Assembly: GCA_964495375.1 (NCBI GenBank)
Contig: CAZBWM010000002.1
Coordinates: 137,780-189,007, forward strand
Direction: 5' to 3'
Source of the DNA: an uncultured Planctomycetaceae bacterium
GTDB taxonomy: Bacteria; Planctomycetota; Planctomycetia; Pirellulales; JAEUIK01
Length of the DNA: 51,228 nucleotides
In this document: piece after piece, positions 33,436 to 50,938 of the stretch
Numbering within the stretch: position 1 is the stretch's first letter
Layout: every line of letters starts with the position of its first letter
Notes under the pieces: generated by a model
Told to the model about the DNA's origin: nothing
Databases searched by the model: none
The model's input: the letters and a program-made list of their open reading frames with translations, nothing else
Program-made: the position numbers and the translations under genes

Positions 33436-34536
33436 TTATGCCCCGTCCGTCGTTAGTGTGTGGAGCCGCTCGCGGGCAACGCGATACAGTTCGCTGTCGG
33501 TTGGGGCCGAGGTGACCACTTCGCCGAGTAGTTGCTTGGCCTTGTCGGGGGCGACTTTCGCCAGCCGCTCGGCCCGCTCAAACGTTTTGTGGCAGGCCCG
33601 CAAGTGGCGGCAGCGTTCGGCGGCCGCGACCTCGGTTTTGTCCCGCTTGAGCGCGGTCAGCCGCTTCTGGGCCAATTCGGCCGAGGGGGCGGGCGAAAGC
33701 TTGACTGCCTGCTCGTAGACCAAAAACGCGCAGCACGTCTGATCGTCCTTCTCGTGCTGCTGGCCAAGCTGCCACAACCGCGCCGCCTCCGGCTCGTTAA
33801 GCACCAGGGCGTATTGCGGGCTGCGACGCAATTTGACCAGGCGCCTACGCAGTTCGGGCCCGATACGAGGGACGTCGTCATAGGCCCACAGCAGTTTGTC
33901 GAATTCTTCGAAGCAACTTAGCACGACGGCGTTAGGATCGTCGGGCTTCGCGCCGGTCGCGGGCGGCGCCGGTTGTTGTTCGCCGGGTCCGGCCACTGGG
34001 GTGTCGTCTTCAAGGCCAGGAATCGCGATCGCGTCGCGGTGGTAGCGCGATTTGGAGCCGGTCGACCCCGGGGCAGCGGACTTCGACTTCGAACCAGCCG
34101 CCGGAACTGCCGGCGCGCTGGCCGACGTGGCATCGGCTAGCCGCGTTTCAATATCGTCGAACTTCTGGCGGGCTTCGTCCTGTAAGGCGGTGAGCGCCTG
34201 ACGTGCGGCGGCCGCCTGCTCGGGCGCGTCCTTATTCAACGCGACGCGCGTGTACAGCGTCACCGCTTTGCGAATCAGTCCGGACTTTTGTGCCGACTCG
34301 GCCATGGCCAAGCGCGCCTTGGCATCATCGGTGATGGCCAGGATCGCGGCTTGTTCCGCCTCCCAGGCCATTTGCATGGCCAGCATGGCAGCTTCACGAC
34401 GGGCCAAGGTGGCAGCGCTAACGCCCCCCCCGGGGGCACAGCCTGCAGCGCCTCACAAGCCCACCGCTGGCTTCATGTCAACCAGCGTCAAACCGGCGGT
34501 CAGAACGACCGTGAAGAATCTTGTGCGACGATGCAT
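33436..34536 (-). CDS. hypothetical exported helical/TPR-like protein interrupted by one in-frame TGA (candidate selenoprotein or pseudogene)
   Basis: ATG at 34536 encodes the signal peptide MHRRTRFFTVVLTAGLTLVDMKPAVGL. An in-frame TGA follows at 34455..34453. The same frame then continues GAAGCAPGGGVSAATLARREAAMLAMQ... for 323 aa. A C8G5 homopolymer and a strong hairpin lie 15-35 nt downstream of the UGA. Confidence 0.5.
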
Positions 34537-34899
34537 CGTGATCCCCTCCGTCGCTGAATATTAAAAGCGTTTGTGGCACCGCCAAGTTTATCTGAGGGTA
34601 CCAAACGCTCGATAGCAACGATTGGTAGTCTACGGATGGGCGTTGCCCGCTGCAAGCTGAAGATGGGCAAGCGAACCGCTAATTTGGAGTCTGGTTCGTT
34701 TTTCGGCCCGTTAGCGTCAATTTTGCGTTACGCACATCGACCGAATGCCGGGAGACCGGCCCCCAACTCAATACGCGGCAGGGCTTGTTTTGCGGTGTTT
34801 GCAGCGGCTCGCTCTTTGGCCGACACTGATGTCGAGGCGAATTCTCACCGCGCCGGGAACATCCGTGCCGCGAACGTCCGTCCTGAAAGTGTTGTGGCG

Positions 34900-35961
34900 A
34901 TGAACACGAACGACTTGTCAGTACGGCTTACGCAGTTAGCCAAACGCGCCGGATGCGCTGCCAAGCAGCCCCCTGGCTATTTGTTACCGTTGCTGGGACA
35001 GATTGGTGGCCTGCTCGACCCGAATGTTCTCGTGGGCTGCGCGACGGCCGACGACGCGGCAGTTTATAAACTGTCAGACGACCTGGCGCTTGTCCTCACG
35101 ACGGACTTCTTCACACCCATTGTGGATCGGCCCTACGACTTTGGTGCGGTCGCCGCCGCGAACGCACTGAGCGATGTTTACGCGATGGGGGGCCAGCCCT
35201 TAATGGCCCTGAACCTCGTCGGTTTCCCAGACGAGAAGCTCTCGGTCGATGTGCTCGCCGAGATCTTGCGCGGAGCGGCCGACAAGGCCACCGAGGCGGG
35301 CATCGCCATCGTCGGGGGGCACACCATCAAGTCCGAAGAACCGATTTTTGGACTATGCGTCGTCGGCACGGTTCACCCCAATAAAGTGCATGCGAACTCC
35401 GGCGCCGTGCCAGGAGACTTGCTGGTGCTGACCAAGGCGATCGGCTTGGGAATTATCACTACCGCTGCCAAGAACAACCAGGACCATCTCGGCGCGATCG
35501 GGCAGGTAATCCAGATCATGACCACCCTGAACAAAACCGCGGCCGAAGTGCTCGCGCGGTTCGACGTCCATGCCGTAACGGATGTCACGGGATTTGGGCT
35601 CTTAGGCCATTTGCGAAACGTCACGTCGGCCAGCGGCGTGCATGCCCGAGTCTGGGCCGACGCGGTTCCGCTGCTTCCGCCGGCGCGGGAGTATTTGAGT
35701 AACGGAATTGCTCCCGGCGGGACCCACGCGAACTGGAGATTTCTGGCCGACTGGGTAACGTACGAGGAGGGTTTAACCAAAGAGGAGCAGCTCCTCCTGT
35801 GCGACGCGCAGACGTCTGGAGGCCTGTTGGCTTGCGTTGACAGTGAGCAATGCCCAGAGCTGATCCGTGCGTTACAAAACGCCGGCATCGAGGCGGCTGC
35901 GGTGATTGGCAGGATCGAACATGGCGAGCCAGGCAAGATCAGCGTCTCAGCACATCGATAG
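34900..35961 (+). CDS. selD: selenide, water dikinase (selenophosphate synthetase), Cys-type
   Basis: MNTNDLSVRLTQLAKRAGCAAK matches the E. coli SelD N-terminus [20 protein letters not shown]. Also DPNVLVGCATADDAAVYKL and AIR-synthase-related C-terminal motifs. Confidence 0.9.
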   Translation: MNTNDLSVRLTQLAKRAGCAAKQPPGYLLPLLGQIGGLLDPNVLVGCATADDAAVYKLSDDLALVLTTDFFTPIVDRPYDFGAVAAANALSDVYAMGGQPLMALNLVGFPDEKLSVDVLAEILRGAADKATEAGIAIVGGHTIKSEEPIFGLCVVGTVHPNKVHANSGAVPGDLLVLTKAIGLGIITTAAKNNQDHLGAIGQVIQIMTTLNKTAAEVLARFDVHAVTDVTGFGLLGHLRNVTSASGVHARVWADAVPLLPPAREYLSNGIAPGGTHANWRFLADWVTYEEGLTKEEQLLLCDAQTSGGLLACVDSEQCPELIRALQNAGIEAAAVIGRIEHGEPGKISVSAHR

Positions 35962-36053: not shown

Positions 36054-37976
36054 GTGACTCGTCGCTCGCTGATTCTGGGAACGGCCGGGCATATCGATCA
36101 CGGCAAGACGACGCTCCTGCGCGCGCTGACCGGGATCGATACCGATCGGCTGCCGGAGGAGAAACGGCGAGGAATTACGATCGACATCGGGTTTGCTAAC
36201 CTCGACATTGGTCCCTGGCACTTGGGAATCGTCGACGTGCCTGGCCACGAGCGGTTTATCAAGAACATGCTGGCCGGTGCGGCCGGCATCGATATCGCTT
36301 TGCTGATCGTGGCCGCTGATGATTCGGTGATGCCGCAGACGCGCGAACACCTGGCGATTCTCCGGCTGCTCGACATCCAACACGGCGTCGTCGTGATTAC
36401 GAAATGCGACCGTGTCGAACCGGCGTGGCTCGACATGGTTGAGGATGATATTCACCGCCTCACGGTCGGCACGTTCCTCGAGAAAGCGCCGATCGTGCGA
36501 ACTGCGGTCCCCGGCGTCGGTCCAAGTCTGGGGCTCGCTAGCTTGCGGGATGCGATCCAAACGGTTTGTCAGCAAGTCGTCGACAAGTCGGCAGCGGAGG
36601 TTTTTCGCATGCCAGTCGACCGAGCCTTCAGCCTGCAAGGTCTGGGCACGGTCGTAACTGGTACGGTTTGGTGTGGTCAACTGAACGTTCGCGACGAAGT
36701 CGAGTGGCTCCCACTGGCAAAGCGACTCAACGTTCGTGGACTGCAGAATCATGGTTGTGACGCGCAAACTGTCGTACGTGGGCAGCGGGCGGCCATCAAT
36801 CTCAGCGGCGTCCACCCTAGTGAGCTTGTTCGTGGACACGAGTTGGCCAGCCCCGGATACCTGGTCCCCTCGAAACTGCTGACGGTCGAACTCCAGGTTC
36901 TGGGCGATAGTCCACGAAGCATCAAGCACCGCTCACGCCAGCGGCTGTATGTCGGCACGCAAGAATTGATCGTGACCGTCGCCTTGTTGGGGCAGCAAGC
37001 GATCGAGCCAGGCCAGAGTGGTCTGGGGCAGTTGCATTGCGCGGAACCAGCCATCGCGGTGGCCGGCCAACCGTTTGTCGTGCGCGCCGAATCACCGCTG
37101 GTCACGATCGGCGGCGGTCATGTCCTGCAGCCGCGCGCCGATCGCATCACTCGTCGACAGTCCGCGCGAATCCAACGGCTCGAAGCACTGCAATCGAAAG
37201 CAGAGGTCGTACGAGCCGCCACGGCGATCTACTTTTATGCGTTCGAGACATGGACTGCACTCGATCTCTGTCGCGATGCGAATCTGGGCATAGATCGCAC
37301 CCCTGCGCTTGTCGAACAGCTTCTACAGGCGGGAGAAGTTGTCGAGCTCTCCATCAAGCCTTCCCAGAGATTGCGCGTCCATCGAGATGTGTTGAACGAC
37401 GGGCAGCAGCAACTACTGAGAATAGTGGAGCAACTTCACGCTCAACACCCCTTGCAGCCGTTGGTGCCGCGTGAACGGGTCGCCGCACTCGACAAGCGAA
37501 TTCAGGGTGCGCCGATAATTGATGCGTTGATCGACCAACTAATTGAGCGTGGATTACTGCGAGGCGATCAGCGTGCCGTGGCCTTGGCCGATTTTGCGCC
37601 GCGGCTTTCAGCCGCTCAAAAGCGACTCCGCGAGCAGGTCTTAGCCGCATTGCAGCAGGACGGCCTACGGCCACCCACCCCGGCAGAGTTGAGCCAGTCG
37701 ATGTCGGCGGACGATGGTAACGTTCGCCAAATCCTCGATCTCTGCACAGCCCAAGGGCTCCTGGTGTACCTGAGCGACGAGCTTTACTTGCACTACGAGG
37801 CCGAAGCTGCGATGCGGCTGCAATTGCAGCAAACCTTGCGCGATGGCGGAGGGCTCACCGTGAGCCAGGTTCGAGACTTGCTGGGAACGAGCCGGAAGAT
37901 CGCCGTGCAAATCTGCGAGCACCTCGACCGGATCGGGTTTACCCGGCGCGTCGGCGACCTGCGCGTCTTGCGATAG
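36054..37976 (+). CDS. selB: selenocysteine-specific elongation factor
   Basis: GTG start. [13 protein letters not shown] (G1), DVPGHERF (G3), ITKCD (G4), and a ~330-aa C-terminal winged-helix extension typical of bacterial SelB. 640 aa. Confidence 0.9.
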
Positions 37977-38049: not shown

Positions 38050-39474
<1,425 letters not shown>

Positions 39475-39552: not shown

Positions 39553-39649
39553 GGGAGTGTCAGTACGCCTGGTGGCGGCCGCGGGCTTCAAACCCGTTGT
39601 GGGGTCTGTCAAACAAACCCTAGGTGGGTTCGATTCCCATCCACTCCCG
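39553..39649 (+). tRNA. selC: tRNA-Sec (selC, anticodon UCA)
   Basis: Lies 78 nt after selA. 8-bp acceptor GGGAGTGT/CCACTCCC with one terminal mismatch. Anticodon stem GCGGG/CCCGT with loop CTTCAAA (UCA). Long variable arm GGGGT...ACCCT. T-arm GTGGG-TTCGATT-CCCAT. ~97 nt. Confidence 0.7.
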
Positions 39650-40088
39650 CTTTTGTCGGTACTGCAGCCCCCTTGTGAATTCTACGTCGCGAATTCTGGG
39701 CTTGGCGTGCTAGGAAATTTCTGAATCATCGCCTATGTGATTGGGAAGGCCGCGCCGAGTGATCTCAAGCTAGATCAAAGCAAATCGGAGGTCCTGTCCC
39801 TGCCCTGTGCAGAATCAGAATCCGGCGGAATACTAGCGGCACAGTGGAGTTCGAACCTAACACGCGAAGTTGCAATAAACGAGTTCGAGCTGACCCACAG
39901 CGGTGCCGAACGAATCGCAACTTGTTAAGCGGCTTGTCTGAAAGTTCACGGCTGCGGAGAGACGACCCTCCCGTTAACAGCCGGCGTAAGTGGCGGCCGG
40001 CATTTGACGGGTTGCCTTGGCGCTTACTCGGGATCCGTCCGTGGTGCACGGGTTGAACTGGTGACCCTAATCCACACTGCCCGCTGCC

Positions 40089-43000
40089 CTACTCTTTGAC
40101 AGCTCGTCGGCCATCCAAGAAATCAATCGCATGATCGATCTGGGTCGCAATGCGGCTGCCATCAGGGCTGATCGCCATGGCCCTGACCGGGTGAGCTCCG
40201 CGAAGATCCAACAACTCAGCGCCATCCGCGACGCGGTACAGGCGCAGCCCGAGCTCGGTTTGCACAAGCAGAGTTTCCCCTCGATCGAGGAAAACGACTT
40301 TCCAGACGGATGCCGTTTCGGGGATTTCACCGAGTAGCTTCCAAGGACTTCGATCCCACACACGAAGGAAGTGGTCGCCGAGGGTGACCAGACGGTGACC
40401 ATCGGTCGAAGCGGCGACGTGCTCAATCGAGGCGCGATGCGCCGCGTGCTCAAAAACTATTTCGCCGCGCGCCGCATCCCAAATTCTCAGCCTGCGATCG
40501 AGCGAAGCGCTCGCCAGCAGATTAGTTCCGGGAATCGCGGTCACCGCGTTCACAGTTTGTGGATGAATCAGGGAGTGCAGCAACTGGCCGCTTAGCAAGT
40601 CAATCAGCAGCAATTGCTGCTCCGTGGCCAGCGCAGCCCAACCCCCGGCCGAATTCAGCGCAACGCCTTTGACCGGAGCGTCCGTACCCAGACTCCAGAT
40701 TTCGGCCTTCGACTCAAGCTGTATTCCGCGCAATGCCTGCCGATCCGAATTGAGGACGATTGCCAGGTTCTGCTTGTGAGCGAGTTGGGCCCAGGTCGGC
40801 GCCTCGATGCGGAGGGTATCCAGCCAGGCTCCCTCCTTGGCATCCACCAGATAAACAGCATCGTCACGCGGCATGCAGGAGACGATCCGATCGTCGTCGC
40901 TCCAGTTGAGCGAATGGGGCTGACGACCACCGCTCATCAACTTTGGCTCGACGTACCTCAGCCCTGGATAGAGCCGAGCGGTACCGTCGCGGGAGCCGGT
41001 GAGAAACACGTTCCGGCCAGGAACATAGGCCACGCTGTTAATTCGATCGCGGTGCCCATAACGAACGCGAAAGGCGGAGGACGCGTTGCGACTCGCGCGG
41101 GCAATCATGAGCGCACCCGATGCGTCGCCGACGGCCAGCGTATCCTCCGCATCGCTAGTCACGCAGCGCGGCTGCACCAGAAAGTCGTGTGGTCCAGCAC
41201 CCCTGCCAAAGTCCTCGCCTGCGGTTAAGTCCCAACTGAGGACTGCGCCGTTACGGCATGTCCCGACTAAGATCCGCTGGGACGACTCGACCGAAAGCGC
41301 GAAGACGTGGTCTTCCGTCGGATTGCGCAGCTTGCCGTCGGGTAGGCGTGGATCTGGCCCTGCCCTGGCCACGTCCCAGCCCCGCACATCGCCGTCTTCG
41401 CTCGCTGTAAAGAGTTCGCCGCGGCGTGAAAAGGCGATTGTGCGTACAACATCCTCATGACCAGCCAAGACCGCAGCCGACTCGCCGGTCGCGCTATGCC
41501 ATACGCGTACGATCCGATCGCCCCCCGCGGCAGCGATCCACTTGCCATCCGGTGAGAACTTCACGTCAGCCTGCCATTCTGTGGACCCCGTTAAGCTGTC
41601 GATCGGTTGCAGCTCAGGCAGCCGCCAACGATGAACCGGGCCATCCTCGCCAACCGCAGCCAGGGTGCTTCCGTCAGGCGAAAAGGCGATGGCGCTGACT
41701 TTTCCCACCTGCGCCTTCAGTTCGCCGATTTTCAGTCGCGTGTCGGTGTCCCAAAGCTGAATCGCGCCATCGGCCCCGGCGGTTGCCAGGATCCCGCCGT
41801 CGGAACTTACCGCGACCGAGGTCACGCTGCCGTCGTGCTGGCCAAGCTGCTCGGATTCTTGCGTCAGATTATGCAGATACCACCAGGCGAAATCGCGTTG
41901 GTCCTGTTCGCCAGGTTTCGGCGTATGACGCGCCAGGATTTTCAAGGTGCGGTCCCCCGCCGAACCGCGCCACGCTTCCAGAGCCAGGTGCATGTCCGCG
42001 GCATAACCATTTCGACGGGCCTGCGCCTCGGCAGTCCGGGCCGCGTCGCGCTCGCGCGCGGTCTCTTGAAGCAACGAGGAGACGCGCCGATTGTGCTCGA
42101 ACAGCCCGACAAACAGCACCACGATGCCGGCACACACAACGGTGGCCAGGGCCGCCAATGCGGGCCGACGCCGACACCATTTCCAAACGGTCGTGGGCAG
42201 AGACGTCGGTCGCGCGACGATCGGCTCGTCGCGCAGGTAACGGTCCAGGTCGTTTGCCAACTCGAGCGCCGCCTGGTATCGCCGGCTCGGCAGCTTTTCA
42301 AGGCATCGCAAGCAGATCGTCTCAAGGTCCAAGGGAATGGATCTTCGTTGCTTCTTGGGTCTCAACGGCTCGGCATCGTTGATCTGCCGGAGGACTTCGA
42401 TATCGCTCGCGGCCCCGAAGGGAGCCCGGCCCGTCAACAGCTCGTAAAGAACCACGCCCAGTGAGTAGATATCTGCTCTTGGACCGATCTCAGCAGTGCG
42501 ACCACCGGCCTGCTCCGGCGACATATAGCGCACCGTGCCAAACAGCGCACCGGAACGGGTCATGTCTTGATCGGCAGCGATAATCTTTGCCAGTCCGAAG
42601 TCCATCAGTTTGGGGACGCAATCCTCCAGTCGAACTGAAACAGCGTCGGCCCTGGCAGTCATTAGCAAGATATTGCTCGGCTTAATATCGCGGTGCAAAA
42701 CCCCTCGGTCGTGCGCATGAGCAACCGCGGTCGCCAAATCCCGAATCAACCGGGCCGCCGCACGCGGCGGGGCAGCTTCCGAACGGGCCGCCAGCCAAAC
42801 CGCCAAAGTCGGTCAGGCACAGTATACCGAGGCAATGTACGGCAGCATCCCGTCGGCGCCGGCTTCGAGCACGGAAACGATATTCGGATGGTCGAGCTTG
42901 GCCGCGGCATGCGCTTCGCGATCGAAGCGCTGCAGCAATTCAGTCGAGCCGAGCGCTTCCAGTCGGGGGATCTTCAGCGCCACTTCGCGCTGCGTGCTCG

Positions 43001-43439
43001 AATCCCAAGCACGATAGACGATGCCGAATCCACCCGAGCCGAGTCGGTCCCGCAGCTCGAAGCGGCCGATCCGCTCACGCGCACTGAGTGGGGCGAGCAA
43101 GGCTGTGTCTGAGCCAGCATGGGATTCGGGTGCTTGCCCACTCGGGGCGAGATGAGTGTCATCAGATCGCGGATCCTCGGCCGGCGCCAGCAGCCCCGCC
43201 TGAGCCACGCGATTGATCAGCGCCAGGCAGGCTTGTGCTTCGCAAAGCGTCGCCAAGGTATCCTGGGGCAAGTCGGCCAGCGGTCGCTCGTCGATCGTCA
43301 GCTCGCTGCCATTGCTGACCGCTTCATCGCACTTCGCCAGGCATTCGCGAAATAACGCGTCCTCGCACAGTCGCGCATCGGCATCGTCGTGCTCCAGGTG
43401 CCGCTCAGCATTCGAACCGCCATCGAGCATGGCCATCAC
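40089..43439 (-). CDS. ECF-associated Ser/Thr protein kinase with C-terminal WD40 beta-propeller; single in-frame TGA at 42815..42813
   Basis: GTG start overlaps the sigma-factor stop (GTGA). Cys-rich N-terminal extension, then the kinase N-lobe GSGGFGIVYRA...VALK. The reading frame ...LPYIASVYCA-TGA-PTLAVWL... continues in the same frame to HRDIKPSNILL, DFGLA, and more than 8 WD40 repeats. Confidence 0.75.
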
Positions 43440-44089
43440 TTGCCACCTTGCGCGAGTTGCCTTCGCAACTGCAGCACGGCTCTCGCCCAGAGTTTTTGCG
43501 CGGCATCGGCGCCGCGTCCCATCCGCTCTCCGATTTCCACGAACGTCAACCGCTCCCAGTTGCGCAACAGAATGACCTGGCGATGATCCGGTGACAGCCG
43601 TTGGATCAGCCTGTTCAATTTCTCAGCCTCTTCGTTGGCGATGGCCACCGCGCTGGGAGTCGCATCGTCGCCTGCAACCGCCAACTCGAAGGCCTGGGTT
43701 GGATCACCACAGCCGAGGGAAATCTCGCGGGCCGTGGCCCGTTTTTGGGTCCCTTGGTAGCGGCGCCGCTCGTGAGCAAGCTTGTTTTCCAGAATTTTTC
43801 CCGTCCAAGCCAACAGCTCCTGTTGCGACAAGCCTCGGAACCGATCGAACCGCAGCCGGGCCTGGAGCATTGTCTCTTGCACGAGATCCGATCCGCCCAC
43901 CTTTCCCTGTACCGCCGGCGAAATGCTCCGATTGGCCGCCTGCAACAGATAGTGGCGGCAGCTTTCCAGAATCTCGGCAATCGCACTGTCAGAACCGGAC
44001 CGCGCCGCCTCGATTCGCGCTTGAAAACGGGACTGCGTTCGGCTCTGGCTAGCCAGTCCAGGCGGCCGCGCACTCGAGTCGCCCATCAT
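43436..44089 (-). CDS. ECF (sigma-70 family) RNA polymerase sigma factor
   Basis: Region 2 (LVQETMLQARLRFDRFRG) and region 4 (LSPDHRQVILLRNWERLTFVEIGERMG). Confidence 0.85.
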   Translation of the reverse strand: MMGDSSARPPGLASQSRTQSRFQARIEAARSGSDSAIAEILESCRHYLLQAANRSISPAVQGKVGGSDLVQETMLQARLRFDRFRGLSQQELLAWTGKILENKLAHERRRYQGTQKRATAREISLGCGDPTQAFELAVAGDDATPSAVAIANEEAEKLNRLIQRLSPDHRQVILLRNWERLTFVEIGERMGRGADAAQKLWARAVLQLRRQLAQGGK

Positions 44090-44650
44090 TACTTAGATTC
44101 CCAAACGGGAGCGAAAGGGACGCGAAATCGTCGCCAGTATGGGCGAGCCCCCTGCCCGACGACAAGAAATTTTCCGCTGCATTTCATTTTTGGATTTTTT
44201 CTCAAAAGTCCGCGTCGGTTTCTCCGGCAATCGGGAATTGAGTGGTGGTGGGAGACCGTTGACCGTTCCGGGGTCGCTGCTCGGGTGTCACCCGCCCTGG
44301 CTGACCGAGGTGCAATCGCCCTGATCGGCGCCTCGGCCGGCCCCCGGCAAGCGACGCGGGAATGTCACGACATTCGTCGCGAGTTTTCGGCTTTTCGCGT
44401 CGTGTTCCCGCTGGGATGGGGATTGAGTGGTTAGCGAAGCGCGCGGTGCGCCCGCATCGGCAAGACGCTATCAACCCGCAACTATTGACCCCTGCCTCGA
44501 GGGGCGAACGCCGCTAGCAGTGAAAACATCGCAAAACAAGCATGATTTCAATGCTGTCGCCGTTCGGCCATTTGGCAATCGTCAATAGGTTGCCCTGGGG
44601 CGCCATTTCTAAGCCTGCACATAACTCTACTTGAACGAGAGGAGACGCCA

Positions 44651-50534: not shown

Positions 50535-50610
50535 GCCGGGACGGGAGTCGAACCCGTTACAGCCAGATTCGCAGTCTGGTGCTCTACCGTTGAGCTACCC
50601 TCTCGGGCAT
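50535..50610 (-). other. tRNA-like element with intact D-, anticodon- and T-arms but a non-pairing acceptor stem
   Basis: Minus-strand D-arm GCTC-AACGGTA-GAGC, anticodon arm CCAGA-CTGCGAA-TCTGG (anticodon would be GCG), T-arm ACGGG-TTCGACT-CCCGT. The 5' GCCCGAG and 3' CCCGGCG do not pair. Confidence 0.4.
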
Positions 50611-50750: not shown

Positions 50751-50830
50751 AGACGCCGATGGGAGTCGAACCCACTAAGAACTGCAGACCACCGCTGCGC
50801 GGCGGTGCCCCAGGCAGTCGCCGCGCCGTC
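50751..50830 (-). other. degenerate tRNA-like remnant
   Basis: Only the T-arm (GTGGG-TTCGACT-CCCAT) and a near-complementary acceptor (GACGGCG/CGGCGTC) are recognisable. No D- or anticodon arm. Confidence 0.25.
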
Positions 50831-50853
50831 TGGCTCCAGCGTCAAATCGTCAA

Positions 50854-50927
50854 TGTCCTCGCCAGGAATCGAACCTGGTCCTCGACCTTCGCAGGGTCGC
50901 GTGCTTTCTCCTCCACACCCCAAGGAC
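50854..50927 (-). tRNA. probable tRNA, anticodon GCG by my fold (Arg)
   Basis: Acceptor GTCCTTG/CGAGGAC with one G·U pair. D-stem GTGT/GCAC. Anticodon arm CGACC-CTGCGAA-GGTCG. T-arm CCAGG-TTCGATT-CCTGG. 74 nt. The D-loop is atypical. Confidence 0.5.
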
Positions 50928-50938
50928 AATCGCGGCGA

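Follow-up and report, generated by a model that had tools for sequence, protein, structure and literature searches.

The current analysis concerns a single kinase gene within a 51,228-nucleotide stretch of DNA (the window) from an uncultured Planctomycetaceae bacterium (contig CAZBWM010000002.1, positions 137,780 to 189,007 of the forward strand). The gene encodes a Ser/Thr kinase (STK) with a C-terminal WD40 sensor, is coupled to the gene of an extracytoplasmic function (ECF) sigma factor, and is interrupted by one in-frame TGA. Judging from the sequence, the TGA very probably arose from GGA by an ordinary and recent nonsense mutation, which knocks out this one kinase and renders its gene a nascent pseudogene in a clonal, Pirellulales-like population. 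The neighboring selenocysteine (sel) genes would play no part in it.

An in-frame TGA splits the kinase

All coordinates are window positions, and the kinase gene lies on the minus strand. Positions 43439..40089 form a single frame of 1117 codons, in which the TGA at 42815..42813 is the sole internal stop. Reading across the stop yields ...MLPYIASVYCA*PTLAVWLAARSEAAPPRAAARLIRDLA...HRDIKPSNILL, with PTLAVWL following the stop, exactly as described in the original prediction made from the letters alone, including the Cys found two residues before the stop (C-A-stop). The open reading frames (ORFs) on either side, 43439..42813 (208 aa) and 42806..40089, occupy the same frame. The gene thus consists of three parts:

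42816..43436, minus strand: upstream fragment of 207 aa, an N-terminal region of ~125 aa plus the kinase N-lobe
42813..42815, minus strand: in-frame TGA, codon 209 from the GTG at 43439, equal to residue 208 from the ATG at 43436
40089..42812, minus strand: downstream open stretch of 907 codons plus TAG, encoding the kinase C-lobe, a membrane helix, and a WD40 beta-propeller

The N-terminal ~125 aa are a family-specific region, after which the upstream fragment carries the P-loop GSGGFG, the VALK lysine, the alpha-C Glu, and the hinge, and then ends ahead of the C-lobe, without a catalytic loop. The downstream stretch carries HRDIKPSN, DFG, SPE, and the activation segment, followed by the membrane helix, while Pfam WD40/beta-propeller models span the C-terminal ~590 residues. 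When the stop is bridged, GSGGFG, VALK, HRDIKPSN, DFG, and SPE are all collinear and amount to a complete Hanks-type Ser/Thr kinase motif set. Likewise, substituting Gly at the stop allows a PknB-type NCBIfam model to align with residues 124-408 in one stretch. Nonetheless, the domain as encoded is not uninterrupted. Ahead of the stop, the Pfam Pkinase model (PF00069) matches at model positions 2-69 and, beyond the stop, at 91-254. The TGA falls between model positions 69 and 91, which places the P-loop and lysine on one fragment and the HRD and DFG motifs on the other. The best solved relative is the Mycobacterium tuberculosis kinase PknB (PDB 1MRU/3ORI), which is collinear over 282 residues (E 1.7e-49). 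In this alignment, the stop falls on PknB Gly97, just past the hinge E93-V95 (PknB residue numbers were counted by hand on the alignment). Whereas PknB has PASTA sensor domains, the window kinase instead has the extra N-terminal region and WD40 repeats.

The stop replaces a conserved Gly codon

An exact-sequence look-up placed the downstream ORF in a cluster at ≥90% identity (that is, at least 90%) with an uninterrupted protein of 1118 aa (P0126). The contig encoding it (L006, from JGI sample 3300038435) has a coding sequence 92.3% identical to that of the window at the nucleotide level. At the site of the stop, L006 has GCC GGA CCG and the window GCC TGA CCG, the flanking codons being identical. 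Among the best 120 homologues, drawn from 5.8 billion clusters, the residue at the aligned column is Gly in 114, Asp in three, and Ser, Ala, and Glu in one each, with no Cys. Since the orthologue has GGA and the homologue column is Gly, the alignments show the TGA to be the product of a single G-to-T transversion at the first base of a GGA codon for a conserved structural Gly. A GGA-to-TGA nonsense mutation at a conserved hinge Gly had been the first choice of the original prediction, which had also suggested an orthologue alignment as a check, and the comparison with L006 as well as the 114/120 Gly residues bear it out.

No species-level orthologue was present in a scan of genome contigs with the kinase, which returned only relatives of ≤60% identity among Pirellulales and Planctomycetaceae metagenome-assembled genomes. 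An exact-pattern scan of genome and metagenome contig collections that do not contain the contigs discussed here, using a 48-mer over the site that was degenerate at the codon, gave no match, and the same pattern does match the window and all six retrieved loci. Among ~15 billion proteins, there is no record of an otherwise exact version of this allele in which Gly, Trp, Cys, or Arg occupies the site. No other family member was found to be split at the same codon. Short homologues run through the Gly and end elsewhere, the exception being P0189 (no contig on record), whose sequence already breaks off at YIA, a few residues short of the Gly. In other genomes, the kinase-family products P0185, P0186, P0191, and P0012 are only 143-307 aa long and are encoded on contigs of 90-370 kb. 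These truncated copies break at differing points inside the kinase domain, suggesting that pseudogenization is frequent in the planctomycetal kinase family and, given that the breaks lie at other places, that the decay of single copies is common.

The base call is supported by contigs from five samples

Gene calls on contigs of five samples (JGI 3300028830 and 3300028901; Logan SRR10823749, SRR10823750, and SRR10823759) include precisely this 207-aa upstream product, which is annotated in NCBI, JGI, and Logan assemblies. Over 1.8-12.6 kb, these contigs match the window at 100% identity with 0 mismatches, all of them have the TGA, and the site lies outside homopolymers and repeats. Because two assembly pipelines and several libraries agree, the base call appears to be sound. 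It could be argued that sequencing or assembly introduced the TGA artefactually and that the organism really has GGA, as only a single base separates the window from its orthologue at this codon and every observation stems from the samples of one study, as evident from the consecutive SRR and JGI identifiers. However, an artefact would have to recur as the same base in all five sets of contigs and in both pipelines, at a site that is neither homopolymeric nor repetitive, while no intact version of the allele is on record among the proteins searched. We therefore regard this explanation as very unlikely, and the possibility of a sense codon beneath an assembly error, which had been foreseen in the original prediction, is not borne out by the contigs.

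Age and probable consequences of the lesion

Pairwise ratios of nonsynonymous to synonymous substitution rates (dN/dS) between the window and L006 are 0.233 upstream of the stop and 0.144 downstream, where the C-lobe of the kinase has 0.044 and its WD40 part 0.216; that of the ECF sigma gene is 0.11. No further stops or frameshifts occur in the 907 downstream codons, which speaks against an independently truncated downstream part, the other outcome that had been considered damaging to the original prediction. The intact frame and low dN/dS therefore indicate that the lesion is recent relative to the ~8% divergence from L006. As far as can be read from these values, the lesion is young, and the downstream part still bears a signature of purifying selection dating from before the mutation.

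If translation ends at the TGA, the product would comprise 207 residues, namely the N-terminal region and kinase N-lobe, and would be devoid of the catalytic loop, DFG motif, activation segment, membrane helix, and WD40 sensor. The remaining 907 codons would then go untranslated or would be translated only from poor internal starts, yielding products without the N-lobe. The in-frame TTG at 42806, two codons past the stop, has no Shine-Dalgarno sequence, and the first downstream ATG, at 42662, is located after the HRD motif and is the start used by gene callers. With the HRD and DFG motifs downstream, the N-lobe upstream, and only poor restarts available, it would follow that neither fragment can be an active kinase and that kinase activity is presumably lost. 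The original prediction had likewise supposed that only a non-catalytic N-lobe is left, and the HRD, DFG, and activation segment do all lie downstream of the stop.

Several observations weigh against a simple loss of function. All 907 codons past the stop remain open and are strongly conserved, which continued production of the full-length protein would also explain. The five samples represent one clone, and they confirm the base call without serving as independent evolutionary observations. Furthermore, both the fixation of the allele and actual termination at the UGA are matters that we infer from sequence, and some leak-through at a UGA-C context is plausible. Poole et al. reportedly found in 1995 that, in E. 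coli, termination is weak where a C follows the UGA.

Accordingly, one may ask whether the UGA is leaky, such that near-cognate read-through (e.g. by tRNA-Trp) or reinitiation at the TTG yields enough full-length or split kinase to make the allele a hypomorph rather than a null. In addition to the intact downstream codons and their low dN/dS (particularly in the C-lobe), this scenario draws on the C that follows the stop, on the position of the TTG only two codons past it, and on the D, S, A, or E found at the site in 6/120 homologues, as the position evidently tolerates some non-Gly residues. However, a null mutation of very recent origin would show equally low dN/dS, since the values are averages over ~8% divergence, and the TTG has no Shine-Dalgarno sequence before it and would restart a product without the N-lobe. 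Moreover, nothing but the mutation itself and synonymous changes distinguishes the downstream sequence from that of the GGA orthologue, indicating that a read-through signal has not evolved. Spontaneous read-through typically amounts to no more than a few percent, which also counts against a leaky stop. Overall, we consider a leaky UGA to be unlikely. Quite improbable as well is the stronger proposal that the kinase is still functional, with the UGA-C being read through by a near-cognate tRNA or opportunistically by Sec-tRNA/SelB under ongoing selection on the 907 codons. If true, such functional read-through would constitute a natural stop-codon "dimmer" on the ECF/kinase pathway.

The closest known counterparts of the interrupted gene are the nonsense-mutation pseudogenes of large paralogous families, with which it shares a one-base stop, an intact orthologue, an undamaged rest of the frame, and other copies truncated elsewhere. 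In the window, the codon differs from that of the intact orthologue by one base, and the difference is the same in contigs from five samples and two assemblers. There is no difference of substance from an ordinary nonsense pseudogene, the only oddity being its chance location beside the sel operon. For annotation, ORFs 43436..42813 and 42662..40089 are best joined and marked as a single pseudogene.

The ECF sigma gene and its pathway

The kinase gene is preceded by the gene of its presumptive target:

43436..44089, minus strand: ECF sigma factor, 217 aa (Pfam Sigma70_r4, Sigma70_ECF)

The TGA stop of the sigma gene overlaps the kinase ATG and shares its A, an arrangement indicative of translational coupling. 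The ECF sigma-STK pair is adjacent and co-oriented in the window, and the same pair is adjacent in L006. The best NCBIfam match of the sigma factor is TIGR02984 (Planctomycetaceae-specific subfamily 1), with a score under the cut-off. Canonical ECFs have an acidic DAED motif in sigma-2.2, and its replacement by a phosphorylatable one defines ECF43 (PMC8999054). For ECF43, the pairing of an ECF with an STK has been documented together with activation through phosphorylation, and the same logic is predicted for the planctomycetal groups ECF59-62 and ECF217 (PMC7826278, PMC8999054). The window sigma factor resembles ECF43-like pairs (EcfP/PknT and EcfK/PknS experimentally; ECF59-62 and ECF217 by prediction) in being coupled to a membrane STK. 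It also appears to lack DAED, with GGSD in its place (sequence VGGSDLVQETML; alignment by eye against the published description). It differs from them in that its kinase is interrupted and has a long WD40 propeller as C-terminal sensor. The GGSD is compatible with activation through Ser phosphorylation of sigma. No recognizable anti-sigma domain was found in the neighbors examined, and the adjoining 303-aa gene has no Pfam match.

By analogy with ECF/STK pairs in which the kinase phosphorylates the sigma factor, the co-transcribed ECF sigma would be left without its activator. In such pairs, the kinase is predicted, and in ECF43 shown, to activate sigma, and its loss should silence the pathway, one of many paralogous ECF/kinase pathways. 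In biological terms, a point mutation would have just disabled a single sensor module out of a large paralogous set in a planctomycete, which is of little importance in itself.

Selenocysteine recoding and the neighboring sel genes

The original prediction had pointed out that a pair of in-frame UGAs falls within 9 kb, beside the full sel machinery. This is true, as selD, selB, selA, and tRNA-Sec lie between them:

34453..34455, minus strand: the other in-frame UGA, a positive control, within gene 34535..33436
34573..35961, plus strand: selD, Cys type (Pfam AIRS/AIRS_C)
36054-37976, plus strand: selB (Pfam GTP_EFTU and SelB wing domains)
38050-39474, plus strand: selA (Pfam SelA)
39553..39650, plus strand: tRNA-Sec, anticodon TCA (ARAGORN; Rfam RF01852, 69.1 bits)

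The tRNA-Sec lies on the strand opposite the kinase gene, 440 bp past the terminal stop codon of that gene. A rival reading is that the kinase UGA might be decoded as selenocysteine (Sec) by the adjacent SelA/SelB/SelD/tRNA-Sec, creating a Sec-kinase with a C-A-U motif. Bacterial selenoproteins are recognized by conserved Cys/Sec pairs together with a selenocysteine insertion sequence (SECIS) stem-loop immediately downstream of the UGA (PMC1088965). The apical loop of such a stem-loop is expected to carry a G. The window kinase does share with selenoprotein genes an in-frame UGA, a full Sec machinery in the genome (the complete sel gene set plus tRNA-Sec within 3.2 kb), and a nearby Cys, here two residues upstream. 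In one fold, there is also a small GC-rich hairpin with the loop GUUC ~21 nt downstream of the UGA.

In contrast to selenoprotein genes, however, the kinase UGA has no Cys/Sec pair, no conservation, and no SECIS, and the ancestral residue is a structural Gly rather than a redox Cys. Neither Cys nor Sec occurs at the UGA column in the best 120 homologues, the sole close orthologue (L006) has GGA, and no other family member ends at this codon. An Rfam scan of 42650-42900 gave no match at E<=10, and the RNA downstream of the UGA is no more stable than shuffled controls (fold z-scores of -1.09 and +0.19). The minimum free energy fold of the 60 nt downstream contains no hairpin that qualifies under loose SECIS-like criteria, even though 26% of 6541 codon positions drawn at random from the window satisfy the same criteria. 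As for the small hairpin, its forming sequence (42769..42790) is identical in the GGA orthologue, which differs within the 60 nt past the UGA at two synonymous positions only, neither of them within the hairpin. Furthermore, the kinase module is not beside sel genes in relatives, and the conserved UGA at 34455 illustrates the look of a real site in this lineage. Taken together, these results make Sec decoding of the kinase UGA extremely unlikely, in agreement with the original prediction, which had already ranked Sec and read-through as the less likely options.

The UGA at 34455..34453, located 8.4 kb from the kinase UGA in a gene divergent from selD, provides an instructive comparison. Gene 34535..33436 opens with an ATG at 34535, preceded by a Shine-Dalgarno sequence (GGAGGGG), and its frame runs MHRRTRFFTVVLTAGLTLVDMKPAVGL-UGA-GAAGCAPGGG.... 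The predicted protein has an N-terminal hydrophobic segment, followed by ...AVGL-U-GAAGC... and a 316-aa helical, TPR-like body. Its motif is U-x4-C, or U-x3-C in the related locus L091 owing to a 3-nt in-frame deletion between the UGA and Cys. Five lineages, with protein identities as low as 71%, retain both the UGA and its frame, and the 23 nt past the UGA are invariant and form a strong hairpin (GCCCCCGGGGGGGGCGTTAGCGC), its sub-hairpin having a folding energy of -22.6 kcal/mol and the 60 nt as a whole -27 to -32 kcal/mol. No Pfam or NCBIfam family matches this gene, and no Cys-form homologue was found. In its 20-member 90% cluster, 14/15 among the members listed are annotated from an internal ATG (316 aa), and consequently the Sec-containing N-terminus is missed. 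The gene fits the bacterial selenoprotein pattern and is probably a genuine selenoprotein gene, while the kinase UGA shares none of its properties. The window thus sets a non-conserved UGA that replaces Gly, in the kinase, against a conserved UGA with an invariant hairpin (34455..34453). The contrast cautions against taking the vicinity of a complete sel operon as evidence that an in-frame UGA encodes selenocysteine.

The selD gene encodes the Cys form of the protein (LAKRAGCAAK), and its start is called variously across assemblies, giving 353, 381, 424, or 441 aa. The conserved core starts at MNTNDL, likely the true start, and the long N-terminal extension is probably spurious. The TGA at 34555-34557 merely bounds the selD open frame.

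Genome-wide reassignment of UGA to Gly, as in genetic code 25, was also considered and rejected. Although the ancestral residue at the kinase site is Gly, TGA terminates neighboring genes normally. The terminators of 21 long ORFs in the window are TAA in 9, TAG in 8, and TGA in 4, which is a small sample with some ORFs unverified. One of the four TGAs ends the ECF sigma gene directly upstream of the kinase, and the sigma C-terminus matches that of the orthologue. Moreover, there is no internal TGA in the Pfam-supported translations of selD, selB, selA, and the ECF sigma, the second in-frame TGA marks a conserved Sec-like position rather than a Gly, and the kinase TGA is the only one at a Gly position in the window. 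The chance that UGA is reassigned in this genome appears vanishingly small. Among the long ORFs, TGA is the least used terminator despite 63% G+C.

Chance proximity of the kinase and sel genes

When examining the neighborhood in related loci, the adjacency of kinase and sel genes is not conserved. L006 is homologous to the window only over 39923..44295, i.e. the sigma-kinase module plus short flanks, and has other genes on both sides of the module and no tRNA-Sec. Conversely, relatives of the sel cluster diverge from the window shortly after tRNA-Sec, L009 at 39689 and L010 at 39991, as does L091, for which divergence was judged from gene calls only. Beyond tRNA-Sec, L009 has an rpoD-like gene, L010 a terminase and an N6/N4 methylase, and L091 DUF669 and DnaB-like genes. 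With the relatives differing past tRNA-Sec and L006 being without the sel side, the adjacency of kinase and sel genes would be accidental. On this comparison of loci, the location of the kinase is a strain-specific accident at a variable, tRNA-linked site, and the pattern suggests that tRNA-Sec is a hotspot of integration or rearrangement. A functional link between the kinase and sel genes was therefore rejected (L006, L009, L010, L091), and with it the hint that the original prediction had seen in their proximity. The genes of L010 and L091 past tRNA-Sec are phage-like, and window positions 39923-39991 are common to L006 and L010, an overlap of 69 bp.

Elsewhere in the window, tRNA-Arg(GCG)-like sequences occur on the minus strand at 50538-50600, 50752-50809, and 50862-50916. 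The first scores 52.8 bits with Rfam, is without acceptor-stem ends, and is missed by ARAGORN, while ARAGORN calls a tRNA-Arg at 50853-50928 that scores only 29.0 bits with Rfam. These sequences may be tRNA-derived repeats or fragments.

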